Shown here piece after piece: positions 10,097 to 18,235 of a stretch of DNA of 25,286 nucleotides (positions are counted from its first letter, which is position 1; each line of letters opens with the position of its first letter). This stretch comes from a virus. Lineage: Duplodnaviria; Heunggongvirae; Uroviricota; Caudoviricetes. The notes under the pieces are model-generated. The model did not search any database and was not told the origin of the DNA. It saw nothing but the letters and a program-made list of their open reading frames with translations. The stretch lies in the IMG/VR virus record IMGVR_UViG_2529293142_000022. One strand, 5' to 3'. A program made the position numbers and the translations under genes.

Positions 10097-11459
10097 AGAT
10101 TGTAGATGAGTTTATTCTCCTGAAAAAGCAGAAAAGCCAGCTTTTGAGCCTGTTTAGGATTCTGTGTAAATGCCTTTTCTCAGAAGTGACCGTCCAGGCG
10201 GTCACCGAACTCGATAATAAAGCGGCTCATTGCCATTCGCCAGTCCTTCAACGGCATCGTCCATTTCTGGGACGCAGACTGGATTGCCAGCCACACCACT
10301 TTTTTCACCGAGTCGTCTGTCGGGAACACTTTACGCTTTTGATCGCATGGCGGATCACGCTGTTTAGCGACTCGATGGCATTCGTCGTATAGATCACTTT
10401 GCGGATGTCCGTTGGATAAGCGAAGAACGTGGCAAGATTCGGCCAGTTAGCCTGCCAGCTTCTGCTTATCTGAGGATAGCGACTGTCCCACGCCGCAGCG
10501 AACGCTTCCAGTGCCTGCTGACCTGCCTCTTCCGTGGGAGCCTGATAAATCGCTTTCAGGTCGCGAGTGACGGCTTTGTAGTCCTTCCATGACACGAAGC
10601 GCAGGCTGTTGCGCACCATATGCACGATGCATAACTGGATGCGGGCCTTCGGATATACTGTGTTGATGGCATCCGGGAAGCCTTTCAGGCCATCCACACA
10701 GGCGATGAGGATATCGTTCAGACCGCGGTTTTTCAGTTCAGTCAGCACATTGAGCCAGAACTTCGCCCCTTCATTTTCGGCCAGCCACATACCCAGCAGT
10801 TCTTTCTGACCTTCGATATTGATGCCCAGTGCCAGGAACACCGATTTGTTGATGACGCGGCTGTCCTGCCGAACTTTCAGGACGATACAGTCAAGATAAA
10901 CAATGGGGTAAACAGCATCCAGTGGTCTGTTTTGCCATTCTACAACCTGCTCCATCACGGCATCGGTGACCTTTGATATCAGTGCCGGTGAAACATCTGC
11001 GTCATACAGTTCTTTGAACGCAGTAGCTATCTCACGGGTGGTCATCCCTTTGGCATACAACGAGAGGATCTGGTTATCCATCCCGGTAATACGGGTCTGA
11101 TTTTTCTTACCAGTTGTGGTTCGAAGGTACCGTCACGATCGCGCGGAGTACGCAGTTCCAGTGGGCCGTCGCCTGTGATAACGGTCTTTGTGGAATAACC
11201 GTTGCGGGAGTTAGCTCCTGGTCTGGACTGATTTTTCTCATACCCAAGATGGTGTGTCAGTCTCAGCATTGAGAGCGGCTTCAACGCTGAGCTTTTTCAG
11301 CAGCCGATCAAACTGACTGAGGTCTTCAGGGGTTTTGAGGTTTTTGGCCAGTTCGTTAGCCAGAGCCTGTAACTGTTTTTCGTCCATAAATTAACCTTCA
11401 TTTGATGCTGGATTGAACATATCAAAATCAGGCAATTACACAAATCTATGTACAGGCTC
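10097..11459 (-). mobile_element. IS256-family (Mutator-type) insertion sequence, decayed; boundaries approximate
   Basis: Transposase remnant spanning 10180..11387; weak terminal similarity (tgtacatagatttgtgtaattgcc versus tgtagatgagtttattctcc); no clear target duplication. Confidence 0.55.
10180..11387 (-). pseudogene. IS256-family transposase with at least three frameshifts
   Basis: Fragments MDEKQLQALANELAKNL.. (11238..11387), ..LTHHLGYEKNQ..NSRNGYSTKTV.. (11042..11284), MDNQILSLYAKGMTTREI... (10305..11081) and ..KVFPTDDSVKKVVWLAIQSASQKWTMPLKDW.. to the stop at 10180; two shifts are 1-bp deletions in A-runs. Confidence 0.75.
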
Positions 11460-11574
11460 TCTGGCCGGTTCGGATTCGTACCTCGCAGAGGTCTTTCCTC
11501 GTTACCAGTGCCGTCACTATGACGGTTAAACAGATGACGATCAGGGCGATTAACATCGCCTTTTGCTGCTTCAT
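11446..11574 (-). pseudogene. hokD: hokD (relF) toxin gene, 3' truncated: 38 native codons then RACT-stop
   Basis: MKQQKAMLIALIVICLTVIVTALVTRKDLCEVRIRTGQ matches Hok-family HokD as recalled, then diverges exactly where the IS256-like sequence begins (about 11459/11460). Confidence 0.65.
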
Positions 11575-11645
11575 AGCCTGCTTCTCCTGTCAACGCAAAG
11601 CAGAAGTGTCACCTTCGGTGCGAAACAGAGATGTCATGCTTTGGT

Positions 11646-11933
11646 TCAGAGAATGCGTTTGACCGCCTCGCTATATACTTCCGAGCGTTCTCTTTTCCCA
11701 ACAGAAATCACGAAAACGACAACTTTCTCGTCTATAACCTGGTATACAAGGCGATAGCCTGAAGACCGGAGCTTAATCTTGTAACAATCAGGCATACCAC
11801 GGAGCTTGTTTGCTTCAATCCGGGGTGACTCAAGTACTTCAACCAGCTTCTTTTTCAACTGTTCACGTACCGTCGAGCCCAGCTTTCGCCATTCCTTTAG
11901 TGCCCGCTCGTCAAAATCCAGAAAATACGCCAT
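11646..11933 (-). CDS. relE: RelE mRNA interferase toxin (95 aa)
   Basis: MAYFLDFDERALKEWRKLGSTVREQLKKKL...YRLVYQVIDEKVVVFVISVGKRERSEVY; 1-nt overlap with relB. Confidence 0.95.
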   Translation of the reverse strand: MAYFLDFDERALKEWRKLGSTVREQLKKKLVEVLESPRIEANKLRGMPDCYKIKLRSSGYRLVYQVIDEKVVVFVISVGKRERSEVYSEAVKRIL

Positions 11934-12172
11934 CAGAGTTCATCCAGCGTCACACGTACTGGCTTAGGATTACGAAGCCGTTCTTTCACTATCTCCACAA
12001 GTTCAGCATCTTCATCACTCAGGAGTGTCTGTTTGAACGGCAAGCGTTCATTGTCAGCGATATACTCGAGCATGAGACGAAGCGCTTCAGAAGGAGTTAC
12101 ACCCATTTTTTCAAGCGCGGCGTAAGAACGCGCTTTAAGTTCATCGTCAATACGCAGGTTAATGCTACCCAT
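11933..12172 (-). CDS. relB: RelB antitoxin (79 aa)
   Basis: MGSINLRIDDELKARSYA..LEKMGVTPSEALRLMLEYIADNERLPFKQ...; ATG at 12170-12172. Confidence 0.95.
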   Translation of the reverse strand: MGSINLRIDDELKARSYAALEKMGVTPSEALRLMLEYIADNERLPFKQTLLSDEDAELVEIVKERLRNPKPVRVTLDEL

Positions 12173-12183
12173 GTCTTACACCT

Positions 12184-12209
12184 CTTGTAATTACAAATGT
12201 CATTACAAG
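12184..12209 (-). promoter_or_regulatory. relBE operator/promoter (relO-like repeats)
   Basis: cttgtaattacaaatgtcattacaag: two overlapping TTGTAAT(T/G)ACA-type repeats 12-37 nt upstream of the relB start. Confidence 0.55.
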
Positions 12210-12502
12210 TATCGCACTACAACATGCTTAGGGCAAGTCACGAAGGAAGTCAGAAAGTAGTCGTAAGAACGGTGATCACTGTCCGCTTTGTGCCAGGAGC
12301 AGCCATTGCTAAGTCCATCCTGTATTGTGCAGGTCAGCTCGTTTTTAAAGAGTCCGGCCATCATCTTACTGGTACAGACACCATATACTTTGTGACGGTC
12401 AGGCTACATATGCACAACTCAACTTATTCATCTATTTTTTGCTTTAGCATGTCAGTATTGCTTTCTCGTCGGCGGGTGAGCGGTGACCTGACCTGTCGAT
12501 AA
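12197..12502 (+). CDS. YdfV-like hypothetical ORF (101 aa); doubtful coding status
   Basis: Track ORF in the K-12 ydfV position and of the same length, but it starts inside the relBE operator and has no recognisable domain. Confidence 0.25.
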   Translation: MSLQVSHYNMLRASHEGSQKVVVRTVITVRFVPGAAIAKSILYCAGQLVFKESGHHLTGTDTIYFVTVRLHMHNSTYSSIFCFSMSVLLSRRRVSGDLTCR

Positions 12503-12654
12503 AGGAACGTAACACGTTTTATGCAACACCCGCATGCGGCAGAAAATTATTGCCGAACGTTTACCCCTGTCAACAAGCTTTACTTTCTGAGGCGCGCCAG
12601 CCCGCGAGGAAAACAATCTGAACATCAAACAATTAATGACACAAGAAATACGAT

Positions 12655-12681
12655 TAAAGATTTTTTTGTGCATGCCGATAG
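12655..12681 (+). promoter_or_regulatory. Sigma-28 (FliA) class 3 flagellar promoter for flxA
   Basis: TAAAGATT-11 nt-GCCGATAG versus consensus TAAAGTTT-N11-GCCGATAA, 24 nt upstream of the flxA ATG. Confidence 0.6.
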
Positions 12682-12704
12682 TGCTTTTTTAAAAGGAGAA
12701 ATCT

Positions 12705-13037
12705 ATGTCTGTCACAATTCAGGGAAATACCTCAACCGTTATTTCAAACAACTCCGCCCCGGAAGGAACATCAGAAATAGCCAAAATCACAAGACAAATT
12801 CAGGTGCTGACTGAAAAGCTTGGGAAAATCTCATCGGAAGAGGGGATGACGACACAGCAGAAAAAAGAAATGGCTGCATTGGTACAGAAGCAAATTGAAA
12901 GCCTCTGGGCTCAACTGGAGCAGTTGTTAAGGCAGCAGGCAGAGAAAAAGAATGAAGACGCGACAGTTCAGCCTGATAAAAAAGAAGAGAAAAAAGACGA
13001 TACAAATACCGCTGGCACCATTGATATTTACGTCTAA
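12705..13037 (+). CDS. flxA: FlxA (FliA-regulated prophage protein), 110 aa
   Basis: MSVTIQGNTSTVISNNSAPEGTSEIAKITRQIQVLTEKLGK...; AAGGAG Shine-Dalgarno; sigma-28 promoter upstream. Confidence 0.9.
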   Translation: MSVTIQGNTSTVISNNSAPEGTSEIAKITRQIQVLTEKLGKISSEEGMTTQQKKEMAALVQKQIESLWAQLEQLLRQQAEKKNEDATVQPDKKEEKKDDTNTAGTIDIYV

Positions 13038-13051
13038 GTGACAGCCGTATT

Positions 13052-13074
13052 GTGGCCCTCATCGGGCCACTTTT
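13052..13074 (+). terminator. Rho-independent terminator after flxA
   Basis: Hairpin gtggccc-tcatc-gggccac followed by tttt, 15 nt after the flxA stop. Confidence 0.6.
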
Positions 13075-13439
13075 CGCCATCAGCCTTTTCTTTAAAGACA
13101 TATTATCTTTGTATCATTTCTGATAGTTAACATTACAAGATATAAGTAATGGACGCACTCCCAATTAGTCTATTTAAATCGCCACGAGTTTAACTGACAA
13201 CCCATGATCAATTATGAATTGCAACTATTTCTGTAGTCACTTTTGTGGGGACAGTCCACAAAACTGCCAACTTCCGCTTCTTGCTCTTAGCGGACATTAG
13301 CATAGGCTATTTACCATAACGCCTCATTACGCGCACCGCCCAGACTGACTCAGCGCGTTTCTGGCATATCCCCGGTAAAACAAGTAACAAACCACCCGAA
13401 AATGAACACCAGAAACGCGACTTAAGAATCTACCCTATG

Positions 13440-14830
13440 AATGGATATGCACTCAACCGAATCGATCTTGGTTTCAATCTTTTTTATCGGGATCAGGCTT
13501 CTTTTTAGGTAACTTCGGGGGCTTAACTTGCTGATGACTTTGCATTCGGCGCGTAAGCCAGGGATGGTCAGCTTTAGGTTTAACATAGTATTTTGAGCGT
13601 AAATCAATACGGGCATTATCCACTCGTTCATGGACACTCTTTTCATCATCCAGTGGTATAGGCTCCGGGCCATCAACATACTTTTCCCAGCCCAGCGCTT
13701 TCCCGTCATACAGAACGTTAATTTCACCGTCAAAGTTCTCGCATACAGTAACAACCGAATGCCTAAGTCGATATCCCCGGCCCTCACTGCGTACCTGAAA
13801 CGCACTGCTTTTGTACTGGAAAGTGAGATTTTTAGACAGAACGCGCTTCGCCTGTAGGCTGAAGATATAACCCAGTTCCTCTTCAGAATGGTGCACATCA
13901 AGATGAGCATTATCAGTAGTACGAGGCGACGTAGCGAACCGGTTGTTATAGGCTTCAATAAAGGTCGGCAACCATGCATTTGCTGTTTCAATATCACTGA
14001 TATTCTGAAGCCGCATTTCTTTGACCAGCCTGTCCTGTAGTGTCTGATTGGCGCGCTCTACCCGCCCTTTTGCCTGCGGGCTGTTGGCATGGATTGGCTC
14101 GATGCCCAGTGTCTTTATCGCACGAGTGAACTGGGTCAGCTCACCTTCCCGCTCTGGGTTATTTACCCTGAATATACTGTGTCTATCAGAGTAGAGAGCG
14201 AGCGGTACGCCATGATCATTAAGGTAACCCCGGAGGGTTTCCATGTAAGCCCGGGTTGTTTCAGCAGGCACAAAACGCAACGCCATCAACGCACTGGTGG
14301 CATCATCAATGAAAACGATCAGTGTACATCTGGGGCCTCGATTTTCAAACCAGTCATGAGGTGAGCCATCAATCTGGATCAGTTCACCGTAAGATGGTCG
14401 TCGCATGCGGCGTTGATATATACGGGCAATTTTACGACGGCGTTCACGCCATAACCCCTCTTCTATCATCCACTTTCTGAGAGTTTCAACGGATAAAGAT
14501 AAACCGTGTATCTCGCGCAATTTTTCGCACGCAAACGTAGGTCCAAAATCAGCGTAACGGCCTTTGAGGAGTGAAATTACTGTTGCTCTGAATTCAGTAG
14601 AAAAGGAATTATTAGGACGCTTTCCACGTCGGTGGGAAACCAGACCAGAAGGCCCTTCATTTCTATACCGTTGCACCAGACGTTTAACCTGCCGAATAGA
14701 AATGCCAATGCGTGCCGCAGCTTGTTCCTGAATAATCTGAAGTCGGTGGAGTTCCTTATGACTCATCGTAACAGTCTCTTTGATCATGAAAAATCCCCCA
14801 GAGAATTGTCTGGGGACATTTTAGAATGGT
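13440..14830 (-). mobile_element. IS element carrying an rve-type transposase (IS481/ISNCY-like); ends not determined
   Basis: Single long transposase ORF; I could not identify terminal inverted repeats or a target duplication, so the coordinates are only a bracket around the gene. Confidence 0.35.
13474..14787 (-). CDS. DDE transposase with N-terminal helix-turn-helix and rve integrase-core domain (437 aa)
   Basis: LIVFIDDATS, LALYSDRHSIF and SPQAKGRVERANQTLQDRL motifs (D, D, E); basic C-terminal tail. Confidence 0.85.
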   Translation of the reverse strand: MIKETVTMSHKELHRLQIIQEQAAARIGISIRQVKRLVQRYRNEGPSGLVSHRRGKRPNNSFSTEFRATVISLLKGRYADFGPTFACEKLREIHGLSLSVETLRKWMIEEGLWRERRRKIARIYQRRMRRPSYGELIQIDGSPHDWFENRGPRCTLIVFIDDATSALMALRFVPAETTRAYMETLRGYLNDHGVPLALYSDRHSIFRVNNPEREGELTQFTRAIKTLGIEPIHANSPQAKGRVERANQTLQDRLVKEMRLQNISDIETANAWLPTFIEAYNNRFATSPRTTDNAHLDVHHSEEELGYIFSLQAKRVLSKNLTFQYKSSAFQVRSEGRGYRLRHSVVTVCENFDGEINVLYDGKALGWEKYVDGPEPIPLDDEKSVHERVDNARIDLRSKYYVKPKADHPWLTRRMQSHQQVKPPKLPKKKPDPDKKD

Positions 14831-15121
14831 TCAAAGGGGACATTACAGCTTGGTGTTAACAATAGCCTGCTTCTCCGTGCCTTTCGGCACGTAAGAGGCT
14901 AACCTACATGTGTCTAGCATGAAATTGGCCTCAGATTAATGTTAAGCGTCTTGCAGGACGCGTAATGTTAACTGGGGCTTTTCTCTATCTGCCGTTGGTG
15001 TCCATGCCCGAGGCAGATAGCCTCAAGCACCCGCAGTCATTCTACTTAACTAAGATTTCCCCGCAAACCGTTTTTGTCCAGCACAGTAAATATCCAACTA
15101 AACCAATGGAGTTCGCTGTAT

Positions 15122-15301
15122 TTACCGCCAGTATTCAATGCACATGACCGCCATGAACACCCCTAAAAAAAGGGCATTTATATATCCAAATATTAATATC
15201 AAAACATCAACTTTTTCCATATACCTTGCTGTGAAGATGATGGGCATACATGATGCGAACAACCAGAACGCAACAAACAAAAACTGCAATGCGTTTTTCA
15301 T
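15122..15301 (-). CDS. Small membrane protein, 59 aa, two predicted transmembrane helices
   Basis: MKNALQFLFVAFWLFASCMPIIFTARYMEKVDVLILIFGYINALFLGVFMAVMCIEYWR; strong TAGGAGGAATA Shine-Dalgarno before the ATG at 15299-15301; the track ORF (15122..15340) starts earlier. Confidence 0.5.
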   Translation of the reverse strand: MKNALQFLFVAFWLFASCMPIIFTARYMEKVDVLILIFGYINALFLGVFMAVMCIEYWR

Positions 15302-15555
15302 TATTCCTCCTACAATCAATGTGCAATTACATTTAAACACACCTCAATTTGGCCGGACATATAAATATCTAAACCAGAAAAAATCACTTACATAGCGTTA
15401 CAAACTCTTTAGTCTAAAGGTTCATCGTAAAACATTCCCCATACTTATCAGTCCGTTCCGCGCCAGGTAGCTCATTGCCTTATCTGGCAACCTGTAATCA
15501 GGTTTCCGCTTTTTCAGTTGGCTGGTCGTTTAACCGACATAGTTAACCCATTAAT

Positions 15556-15843
15556 CTAGTTGCCGGATGTTGGTGGATTTTCGCGTTTTAGTTGTTCATA
15601 AAAGTGCACAGCTTTAACCAATTCTTCTGATGTAACCGGGACTGGTGAGGCAGTGAATAAGGCCTGAATTTGATAGTTCGGCCTGTCGTTACAATCCTCT
15701 TTTTTCGGTACATATTTCCAGTCACCAGACCACTACTTCCCCTGAAAGTCCGTAACGCCTTTTTTCACGTAGCGATATCGCCATGTCACTGGTTTTGCTT
15801 GCCCCGCCGTTTCATGCCCTTCCTGATAATTAATCTCGCTCAT
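15556..15843 (-). pseudogene. Nin-region-like ORF (95 codons) interrupted by an in-frame TAG at codon 37
   Basis: MSEINYQEGHETAGQAKPVTWRYRYVKKGVTDFQGK-TAG-WSGDWKYVPKKEDCNDRPNYQIQALFTASPVPVTSEELVKAVHFYEQLKRENPPTSGN; its ATG overlaps the stop of the upstream ORF (ATGA). Confidence 0.4.
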
Positions 15844-16031
15844 TCATCGCCCCACTCATCACAATATGCTTCGACCGGAGTTTTTCCCGCTTCATAGTCA
15901 TCACGCTAGGATTCGACATCAGCAGCACTTCCACCGCGTAACTCACCATAGTCCATTAATAGTTCATCCCGCTCTTCAAAACTGATGTTATATTTAGCTG
16001 AACAAAAATCAGCCACTTTGTTCTTCCTCAT
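15840..16031 (-). pseudogene. Small acidic ORF (64 codons) interrupted by an in-frame TAG at codon 42
   Basis: MRKNKVADFCSAKYNISFEERDELLMDYGELRGGSAADVES-TAG-RDDYEAGKTPVEAYCDEWGDE; TGA overlaps the ATG of the next ORF. Confidence 0.35.
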
Positions 16032-16080
16032 CGTCTTTTATTTCGTGGTATGAGTAATTGCAGTAGTTAAAGAAAATTTC

Positions 16081-16191
16081 TTATGCTCCGTCATGAATTT
16101 CATCAGGTGTTGCGTCATCGTCCACTTCGAATACATCCTCAAAATCTCCACCAGCTATTCCCGTTTCAATAATAATTTTGAACTTTCGCAT
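16081..16191 (-). CDS. Candidate small acidic protein (36 aa)
   Basis: MRKFKIIIETGIAGGDFEDVFEVDDDATPDEIHDGA; weak Shine-Dalgarno; a GC hairpin (ccgccc-tttc-gggcgg) lies just upstream. Confidence 0.25.
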   Translation of the reverse strand: MRKFKIIIETGIAGGDFEDVFEVDDDATPDEIHDGA

Positions 16192-16453
16192 TTCACTACC
16201 GCCCTTTCGGGCGGCCTCCTGATGTTCTGAGGGTGCAGAAATCCATCCGGTTAAGGATTAAATTTTATTTACAGAACTGAATTTAATTATTCAGATATAC
16301 GTATCTGTAGCCTTACGAATCTACTCACTGGATGCCTCTTTCATAAAAATAATCCAGTGGGTTTTATCGTTTTTTCCCTGTTCGTTGACAGATAACAGGT
16401 TTTCTGTCTGTCAGTGCCAGAATCTGGCTTACCGGTATTTGCGTTTCATTCCA

Positions 16454-16810
16454 TTAAAAAATCAGAACGCCGTGCGGCCTCAACACCCGAAAGGCTTCTT
16501 TAAATCTCTGTCGCAAATCATCACGCCAGGCATCTTTATTCAGCCGTCCATATTTCTTTCCCATCCAGGCGTTATCACCAACACGCTCAAGATGCGGAGG
16601 GTCTAATACAACCATCGAAAAAGATGCGTCTGCAAATGATAATGCACGAAAATCTGCGATAATGTCAGGGTTGATAATCAAGCGTCTCCCATTGCGTAAT
16701 GTGTATCCTTCTTTTCTGATATCGCTGAATATCGCCCGTTCGTCAGACTTATCGAACCAGAACATGCGGCTGCCACAGCACATATCAAGAATGGTTGCCG
16801 GTGCACTCAC
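16454..16810 (-). CDS. Short SAM-dependent DNA methyltransferase-like protein (118 aa), probably C-terminally truncated
   Basis: Motif I-like ILDMCCGSRMF and motif IV VVLDPPH; GTG start overlaps the upstream stop (GTGA); no continuation in any frame downstream. Confidence 0.5.
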   Translation of the reverse strand: MSAPATILDMCCGSRMFWFDKSDERAIFSDIRKEGYTLRNGRRLIINPDIIADFRALSFADASFSMVVLDPPHLERVGDNAWMGKKYGRLNKDAWRDDLRQRFKEAFRVLRPHGVLIF

Positions 16811-17229
16811 TGCGCCACGTCCTGAAAATTACCCTGATAGAAAGCCAGTATGCGCTGCATAACTTCGCTCTTCCGGCACTCGCGACAGATTATGTTTAGG
16901 CGACTGTCGTAGCGACGTATTTCTCCGTCAGGTGATGACCAGATAAGGTCCGGATCAACCACAGCAGGTTTCTTCACCTTTGCCCTCGAGAGTTTTTTGC
17001 GGGCGTTTTGCCAGTCCTTACGCGCCTGTTCAGAGGGGAATAACCCGTAGCCGGAGTTGTATACATCGCCACTGGCTACCAGCTCTCTGGCAAGAACGCT
17101 CATCAGATATCTAGTCGCACCTGTTTTAGCTTCCAGTTGCCGTAACGTCTCACGGCCGCTCTGGCGCACGAGTTCCACCACCTGCCATTTAATTTTTTCC
17201 CGCTCTTCTTGTGTAAAAACTTTTGCCAC
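16807..17229 (-). CDS. Hypothetical early-region protein (140 aa)
   Basis: GTG start preceded by AAGGGGGA Shine-Dalgarno; coupled to the methyltransferase-like ORF; no family recognised. Confidence 0.55.
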   Translation of the reverse strand: MAKVFTQEEREKIKWQVVELVRQSGRETLRQLEAKTGATRYLMSVLARELVASGDVYNSGYGLFPSEQARKDWQNARKKLSRAKVKKPAVVDPDLIWSSPDGEIRRYDSRLNIICRECRKSEVMQRILAFYQGNFQDVAQ

Positions 17230-17269
17230 AAGTCCCCCTTAAAATTACCTCATGACCTGAAATCAACAC

Positions 17270-18235
17270 TTATCCTCTGAAACCAGGCGGAATTTCTGTA
17301 TCCGGTTCAGAAATATGATTAACACAACGCTGTACAGGTGAACGTCCCAGGCGGATGACCAGTTCGTCCCATTTTTCGCGGAGCTTTGACGGGCTCATGA
17401 TGTTTTTTACCCAGAATGGATCTCGCTGAACCCGACCAAACATTTCGCAAATTTGTCTGTGGCTTCTGCCATCCAGCATCCGCATTGTGCGCACGTCATT
17501 GGCCCAGGCAGTCCAGTTAGGCTCTTTTGGTCGCATGATCTCGCCATCATCACTGGCTGCCTGTTCGTAGAGACCCACGATCCGCCCCCAGATCCACTGC
17601 GCACACGCCAAATCCTCCCTGCTACCCCACTGGCGTTTTTTCGCACTAAACACAACCGCGTCGGAGTTCCGGGTTAAAAAATCCTGTTCAGTCGTCTGCG
17701 GGTCCGGTTGCGAAGCTTCCGGACGAAAAGTGTTTTTATTCTCTGTAGTAATCTCTGTTGTATTCTCTGTAAGATCATCAGGCCATTTTGACCCGATGAC
17801 ATTGGGTCGTTTTGAATCAATGGAGCGTTTCATTTTGACCTCTTCCATCGTGTCATTTTGACCTGATGGAGCGGCGCATTTTGAACCGATGGATTCGCTC
17901 AATTTGCCACCATCTAAAAGCTCGCTCCCATAGTTGATCGTGTAGAAATTGGTCATATCGCGCTTTGATTTATTGAGCTTTTCACAACGCAAAAGCCCCA
18001 GCGTTTTCAGACTTGCAAACGCGCGCTTTAACGTTGACTCTGACCAGAATGGGAACTGTTCCAGCCATTGTTCCGTTGTGTTATAAATCCAGCGAACACC
18101 ATCACATTCCATGCCGGAGTTGGTATCTCTCAACCAGTAGTGCAGTTGTTGCAAAACAATGGCTTCGTTTAAGCCAATTTTCATTGCCAGCTGCGTGTTT
18201 ATAACCAGTGGGCGTTCAGCAAAAAGAAGGCTCAT
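17270..18235 (-). CDS. Replication initiation protein, phage replisome-organiser (O-like/DnaD-like) N-terminal domain, 321 aa from ATG
   Basis: MSLLFAERPLVINTQLAMKIGLNEAIVLQQLHYWL...WSESTLKRAFASLKTLGLL; iteron array inside the gene; track ORF starts at a TTG (18289). Confidence 0.8.
   Translation of the reverse strand: MSLLFAERPLVINTQLAMKIGLNEAIVLQQLHYWLRDTNSGMECDGVRWIYNTTEQWLEQFPFWSESTLKRAFASLKTLGLLRCEKLNKSKRDMTNFYTINYGSELLDGGKLSESIGSKCAAPSGQNDTMEEVKMKRSIDSKRPNVIGSKWPDDLTENTTEITTENKNTFRPEASQPDPQTTEQDFLTRNSDAVVFSAKKRQWGSREDLACAQWIWGRIVGLYEQAASDDGEIMRPKEPNWTAWANDVRTMRMLDGRSHRQICEMFGRVQRDPFWVKNIMSPSKLREKWDELVIRLGRSPVQRCVNHISEPDTEIPPGFRG
17784..17914. repeat. Iteron array: six CATTTTGACC-like repeats at about 23-bp spacing; putative prophage replication origin
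   Basis: Repeat starts at 17784, 17808, 17831, 17854, 17877, 17900; lies in the low-complexity linker of the O-like gene. Confidence 0.6.

Follow-up and report, generated by a model that had tools for sequence, protein, structure and literature searches.

The viral record IMGVR_UViG_2529293142_000022 (Duplodnaviria; Heunggongvirae; Uroviricota; Caudoviricetes) comprises 25,286 nt of DNA, referred to here as the window, in which two small overlapping ORFs are each interrupted by an in-frame TAG. Such frames could be decayed genes, genes that are expressed only with a suppressor, or deliberately shortened products, and the question raised by this locus is which of these applies. Our analysis indicates that the two frames, ORF-A and ORF-B, are very probably ordinary nonsense-inactivated pseudogenes in a defective Qin-type prophage. 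The locus would then exemplify, in textbook fashion, how genes decay once a prophage is domesticated, and it would carry little biological weight.

Translation of the minus strand confirmed both frames. A sequence-only reading of the window had placed them at 15840..16031 and 15556..15843; these coordinates hold, but the genes lie on the minus strand. ORF 16031..15840, with a single in-frame TAG at 15908-15906, translates as MRKNKVADFCSAKYNISFEERDELLMDYGELRGGSAADVES up to the TAG and as RDDYEAGKTPVEAYCDEWGDE from there to the terminal stop. ORF 15843..15556, with an in-frame TAG at 15735-15733 (TAG1), reads MSEINYQEGHETAGQAKPVTWRYRYVKKGVTDFQGK and WSGDWKYVPKKEDCNDRPNYQIQALFTASPVPVTSEELVKAVHFYEQLKRENPPTSGN in the same manner, and the two frames overlap by ATGA at 15843-15840, as had been proposed. 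Homology places the start of ORF-A at 16016 and not at the ATG at 16031, which is the product of a substitution specific to the window lineage. The codon at 16016 is GTG in the window and ATG in intact relatives, in which the start of ORF-A overlaps the stop of the upstream gene as ATGGCTGA. The features discussed below are as follows.

16321..16810, minus strand: SAM-dependent DNA methyltransferase pseudogene, labelled "frameshifted; internal stop" by PGAP
16009..16191, minus strand: DUF7167 pseudogene, labelled "internal stop" by PGAP, directly upstream of ORF-A, with its stop overlapping the ORF-A start
15840..16016, minus strand: ORF-A pseudogene, homologue of a 58-aa lambdoid-phage protein (phrog_519)
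15422..15843, minus strand: ORF-B pseudogene, phrog_660 family
15760..15765, minus strand: A6 homopolymer in ORF-B, 8 codons upstream of TAG1
13474..14787, minus strand: transposase gene of an ISNCY-family element that has inserted directly 3' of the dead genes

The earlier impression that both frames look protein-like across the stop reflects real homology, as 239 and 40 database homologues and matches to phrog_660 and phrog_519 were found for the two frames. No Pfam family matched the protein of either frame. Relatives at 89-95% DNA identity carry intact, overlapping genes for DUF7167 (60 aa; PF23768/phrog_1997), a 58-aa protein (phrog_519), and a 119-aa protein (phrog_660), all families of unknown function. 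Both window frames share 89-90% DNA identity with their relatives in L004, and the intact L004 relatives of ORF-A and ORF-B matched the phrog_519 and phrog_660 profiles at 1.8e-23 and 3.7e-43, respectively. An AlphaFold model of an intact ORF-A relative predicted a three-helix bundle (pLDDT 88), with the stop falling in helix 2. When searched by structure, the model of the ORF-A family retrieved only uncharacterised phage proteins and no match in the PDB. The predicted structure of the ORF-B family was poor (pLDDT 45).

The same gene order is found in the early set of Rac-/Qin-like lambdoid prophages and phages (NZ_CP101269, which is L004; phage vB_EcoS-640R1; and PP818812.1). These intact sets share the overlapping junctions of the window, the one between DUF7167 and ORF-A as well as ATGA, at 89-95% DNA identity. 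DUF7167 and ORF-A are open in them, and ORF-B is open in L004 and L008, whereas all three genes are interrupted in the window. PP818812.1 (L008) is named "Actinobacillus phage vB_Apl-pPE4". At 90% nucleotide identity, it carries the present lambdoid early region of E. coli, and its recorded host, Actinobacillus pleuropneumoniae, looks like a doubtful assignment.

Judged from its sequence, the window is a defective Qin-type lambdoid prophage that has become fixed beside rspB in the E. coli chromosome. It aligns along its length with the region that cryptic Qin occupies in many E. coli chromosomes, and both alignment and gene order identified it as a less-deleted version of Qin. In isolate 07-4299, the order begins with nohA, ynfO, ydfO, gnsB, cspI, rzpQ/rrrQ, cspB/F, and ydfT/U, followed by rem, hokD, relBE, ydfV, flxA, ydfW, an IS remnant, and the region of interest. 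It continues with DUF977, a replication-protein-O-like gene, a ydaT-like gene, cro/cI-like repressors, and ydfABC, and it closes with dicB, ydfD, an exonuclease, an excisionase, an integrase, and finally rspB. Rfam matches in the window comprised DicF, sok, and two cspA leaders. The four dead genes sit in the early region of the prophage, with replication genes on one side and the antiterminator Q gene on the other.

The matching region of K-12 MG1655 (b1544-b1579) is annotated as "cryptic prophage Qin". It occupies the same chromosomal site, adjacent to rspB, and shares with the window the order ydfO, gnsB, cspI, rzpQ/rrrQ, cspB/F, ydfT/U, rem, hokD, relBE, flxA, ydfW ... dicC/dicA, ydfABC, DicF, dicB, and ydfD. 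Identity between the two was 94.9-100% in the blocks flanking the K-12 deletion on both sides. Unlike the window, K-12 Qin lacks a stretch of 4.8 kb (window 13659-18457) between ydfW/ydfX and dicC, which holds the four pseudogenes and replication genes, while the window retains intact-looking exonuclease, excisionase, and integrase genes and carries three IS elements (6178-8681, 10146-11459, and about 13400-14860). Variability and decay of Qin, and also the insertion of relBE at hokD, have been described previously (Ramisetty and Sudhakari, 2019; PMC6379469). With three IS elements in the window and 4.8 kb deleted in K-12, decay around the genes is visible.

The K-12 MG1655 deletion is clean (L012 4358/4359, with ydfX at the junction) and takes the ISNCY element, the sok remnant, the four pseudogenes, DUF977, the replication gene, and part of the ydaT-like gene. 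As for the IS elements themselves, the ISNCY-family transposase is intact at 437 aa, and the IS66-family element carries tnpA, tnpB, and tnpC. The IS256-family element has its transposase split over two ORFs (10305-11081 and 11042-11284) and replaces 476 nt of strain 07-4299, including the 3' end of hokD.

The interrupted codons were then compared with those of intact homologues, which carry a sense codon and a continuing frame at the amber sites; the suggested check of whether TAG replaces a sense codon of orthologues was positive for both frames. In ORF-A, TAG replaces TGG, the codon of the near-invariant W37: codon-level alignment showed TGG in L002, L003, L004, L007, and L008, and protein alignment showed W at position 37 in all full-length homologues translated with table 11. 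The truncation thereby removes the C-terminal half of the protein, which is the most conserved half. ORF-A has also changed its start codon at 16016-16014 from ATG to GTG (M1V) and its conserved W16 to R, the second conserved Trp lost.

In ORF-B, TAG1 lies at a variable position where homologues have Gln, Leu, Pro, or Met (Gln, for example, in NCBI protein P0008). This frame had been credited with one TAG, and the internal TAG1 is indeed present; however, its apparent natural stop (TAG2, 15558-15556) is itself a CAG>TAG nonsense change, as NCBI proteins P0033 and P0044 have Gln there. Past TAG2, the frame, like the ancestral gene, runs on to one of two ends: TGA 15516-15514, the one used in P0033, or, once shifted near 15530, TGA 15424-15422, the one used in P0005 and P0044. 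The latter agrees with the PGAP label "frameshifted; internal stop" for ORF-B, given at L001 1958-2379, which corresponds to window 15843-15422. L003 and L007 lack 57 nt in the 3' part of the gene (window about 15500-15560), which yields the C-terminal variant …NPPASGNLITDSQIRQ, and at least three different ORF-B 3' ends are in circulation.

The two genes upstream carry disabling lesions of their own. DUF7167 has K37 changed from AAA to TAA at 16083-16081, where relatives have K. The methyltransferase gene has AAA>TAA at 16456-16454 (K in relatives), a 1-nt insertion at about 16379, and its ancestral TAG terminator changed to GAG. In total, at least seven linked disabling lesions are distributed across four adjacent genes; besides the two ambers first noticed, they comprise two TAA codons, the 1-nt insertion, the lost stop, ATG>GTG, the second TAG, and the 3' frameshift. 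Because several of these lesions are not amber, no amber-specific mechanism would rescue the gene run. The inactivation is already known in part, since PGAP gives a pseudogene label to three of the four, namely the methyltransferase, DUF7167, and ORF-B, in a genome that is 99.9% identical to the window over the 901-nt stretch searched; in the same genome, PGAP makes no call for ORF-A.

To estimate the spread of these alleles, short exact sequences around the ambers were searched in 5426 complete E. coli genomes. The 61-mer containing the ORF-A TAG was found in 496/5426 genomes, always as a single chromosomal copy, with E. coli W among the carriers, and the 60-mer containing TAG1 was found in 925/5426. 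TAG1 also occurs in a clade of 93% identity whose other genes are intact. The suggestion that the frames are fresh amber pseudogenes was therefore half right: at least seven linked lesions in four genes make them pseudogenes, but alleles present in 496 and 925 genomes are not fresh. A haplotype set was assembled from 67 metagenomic or IMG/VR contigs with the ORF-A TAG and four matching loci (71 loci). Counted among the loci covering each site, the DUF7167 TAA was present in 69/69, TAG2 in 63/63, TAG1 in 65/68, and the methyltransferase TAA in 60/62. These results show that the lesions travel together as one haplotype. Further lesions had arisen in sublineages of the 71 loci, namely loss of G at 15759 (seven loci), an A8 run (one locus), and a new CAA>TAA change (one locus).

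Whether two ambers in adjacent coupled genes are unusual, as had been suggested, was evaluated with branch-specific substitutions, defined as departures of the window from a state common to three intact relatives. DUF7167, ORF-A, and ORF-B contained 42 of them: 19 synonymous, 21 nonsynonymous, and 2 stop-creating. Given the transition bias in the data, neutrality predicts that 1.85 of the 42 would create a stop, so that neutral decay with about 1.9 expected stops is enough to account for them; one further stop-creating change is at a variable site, outside the count with an inferable ancestor. Two adjacent ambers are striking when viewed alone, yet they fall within neutral expectation once the whole lesion run is seen.

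On the window branch, the 58-aa ORF-A has acquired nine amino-acid changes, M1V and W16R included, and a stop. Its dN/dS was 0.21-0.27 in pairs with the window vs 0.04-0.11 in intact pairs, which clearly points to relaxed constraint on ORF-A. ORF-B dN/dS showed no clear rise (0.19 in window pairs vs 0.30 between two intact relatives). Polymorphism within the TAG haplotype amounted to 24 nonsynonymous or stop-creating vs 16 synonymous variants, somewhat below the neutral ratio (p = 0.03). This synonymous excess vanished after alleles common to intact relatives were removed, and such alleles were probably imported by recombination. Variants absent from intact relatives numbered 14 nonsynonymous and one stop-creating vs eight synonymous, and neutrality was not rejected (p = 0.22).

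Based on these results, a course of decay can be proposed. The four small genes (methyltransferase, DUF7167, ORF-A, and ORF-B) would once have been chained, each start overlapping the previous stop, so that translation of one gene would feed the next. When the prophage turned cryptic, its accessory genes would have been freed of selection and would have taken up point mutations at the neutral rate. The stops would have arisen by TGG>TAG, CAG>TAG twice, and AAA>TAA twice, accompanied by small indels, a lost start, and a lost stop. Ribosomes would terminate at the premature stops via the normal release factors, giving fragments of at most 36 aa, and because each stop precedes the overlapping start of the following gene by 60-110 nt, translational coupling would be lost as well. 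The haplotype may have spread with the Qin prophage through vertical descent and recombination while sublineages kept adding lesions. The gene run would now be a non-functional relic awaiting deletion, a fate that it has already met in K-12.

The A6 run upstream of TAG1 is a site of indels in relatives. Either A8 or the loss of G at 15759 leads into a frame that passes TAG1 as AGT-AGT; A8 was found in the 93% clade, in L002, L003, and L007, and in L052, and the loss of G in seven loci. Such independent entries into the TAG-skipping frame could be chance or compensation. In L013 1575-1625 (NCBI GCA_054890285.1; window 15733-15765), a 93%-identity relative, A8 is combined with an extra T after the TAG. 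These paired indels restore the ORF-B frame, with the TAG read as AGT-AGT, and give an intact 105-aa ORF. This allele could hint at selection to keep ORF-B in that other clade. Programmed frameshifting at the A6 run was considered and rejected, as the run is not in the X_XXY_YYZ register and the protein of the alternative frame is unconserved and rich in Arg, Lys, and Ser.

A low-level function would be an alternative to pseudogene decay, if natural UAG read-through made some full-length ORF-A and ORF-B protein and the stops served as expression attenuators. We consider this very unlikely. The TAG alleles are unchanged in hundreds of genomes, but such persistence is expected anyway in a vertically inherited region that is 99% identical. 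The unfiltered polymorphism is slightly biased toward synonymous variants (p = 0.03) and the L013 frame-restoring allele fits this reading, whereas the novel variants look neutral and K-12 has deleted the segment. Two read-through events would be needed for ORF-B, and ORF-A also lacks its ATG and a conserved Trp. UAG read-through without a suppressor is very inefficient in E. coli, which counts against such a function. The upstream TAA stops and the frameshift would also break the coupled chain and so argue against read-through. It is these TAA stops and frameshifts, together with the loss of the start codon beside the ambers, that give read-through its low probability.

It has been argued that some conserved in-frame stops in bacteria are read through (Belinky et al., 2021; PMC7918605). 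Those stops resemble the present ones in that an in-frame TAG stands where orthologues have CAG and is common to many genomes. Unlike those cases, the present locus has TAA stops, frameshifts, a lost start, IS insertions, and neutral-looking polymorphism, and with these accompanying lesions and this polymorphism the pseudogene reading suffices. A broader version, in which ORF-B and perhaps ORF-A would not be fully dead, with low-level product made by read-through or by slippage at A6/A8, TAG1 being tolerated and the indels (A8, the G loss, and the L013 pair) reflecting selection to regain expression, appears just as improbable.

The 36-aa N-terminal fragments of ORF-A and ORF-B might instead be new functional micro-proteins, in line with the earlier idea of deliberately shortened products. 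The short ORFs are stable over many genomes, and some gene callers list products of 36-41 aa (P0147 and P0151). However, helices 2 and 3 of the model fall outside the ORF-A fragment, which also loses nearly every invariant residue. Lineage-specific replacements pile up in the N-terminal part of ORF-A, which is the opposite of conservation. For its translation, ORF-A relies on a weakened GTG start and on an upstream gene whose own frame is cut short. With the most conserved half of ORF-A removed by the truncation, no support was found for shortened products, and this possibility is rated as highly improbable.

A still smaller chance is assigned to TAG being read as Gln, either through phage-style recoding (genetic code 15) or through a host suppressor (supE or supF), and at the level of sequence data this reading is refuted. 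The idea of genes expressed only with a suppressor found no backing, since the window contains no tRNA gene and the suppressor alleles are scarce in the host. An exact supE (glnV CUA) allele occurred in 155/5426 genomes; the 40 carriers among the matches listed were all K-12 laboratory derivatives, and K-12 Qin lacks the ORF-A/ORF-B segment. The supF allele was found in 0/5426 genomes by exact search. Wild-type copies matched the supE and supF query sequences with exactly one mismatch, which supports these queries.

TAG-recoded (code 15) phages also have in-frame TAG in phage-derived genes. In contrast to such phages, where TAG spreads across many genes and does not serve as a terminator, the window has no suppressor tRNA, only three sites, all of them in the two dead genes, have an in-frame TAG, and the other annotated genes, including the long prophage genes, are open under table 11. 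An intact methyltransferase relative terminates with TAG, and the ancestral residue at the ORF-A site is Trp, not Gln.

What speaks for a Gln reading is that public protein sets contain "full-length" versions with Q (P0121, P0001, and P0004), some gene callers having translated window-type contigs with TAG as Gln. The Gln at the TAG sites in P0121, P0122, P0148, P0001, and P0004 was considered as a sign of CAG ancestors or revertants and rejected. Two of the contigs behind the listed "full-length" ORF-A/ORF-B proteins with Gln at the amber positions were checked (L010 205-725 and L011 761-1233), and both carry TAG. As no table-11 translation of these contigs gives the listed proteins, the Gln residues are artefactual, and a code with TAG as Gln must have been in use during gene calling. 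Without a look at the DNA, such database entries can be mistaken for signs of revertants or recoding. Finally, sequencing or assembly errors in a single record are excluded, since the identical alleles recur in independent complete genomes (496 and 925) and in 67 contigs of metagenomic or viral origin.

Three further features were observed near the dead gene run. The minus-strand sequence GGCCGCCC-GAAA-GGGCGG (window about 16198-16217) makes up a GC-rich hairpin that lies directly upstream of the DUF7167 start and its ribosome-binding site and is kept in all aligned relatives; it is unlike a simple terminator because no T-run follows it. An ORF of 72 aa with strong hydrophobicity (MFKCNCTLIVGGIMKNALQFLFVAFWLFASCMPIIF...; window 15122-15340, minus strand) occupies the space from ORF-B to the sok remnant; it has no PGAP annotation and no NCBIfam match, and L010 and its relatives have conserved it. 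The hok/sok locus is in two parts, with the sok RNA and hok leader at 14862-15032 and the hokD coding part at 11460-11588, 3.3 kb apart. The relE-relB-ydfV-flxA-ydfW-ISNCY segment (11589-14861) lies between them, whereas they are contiguous in relatives such as L002.
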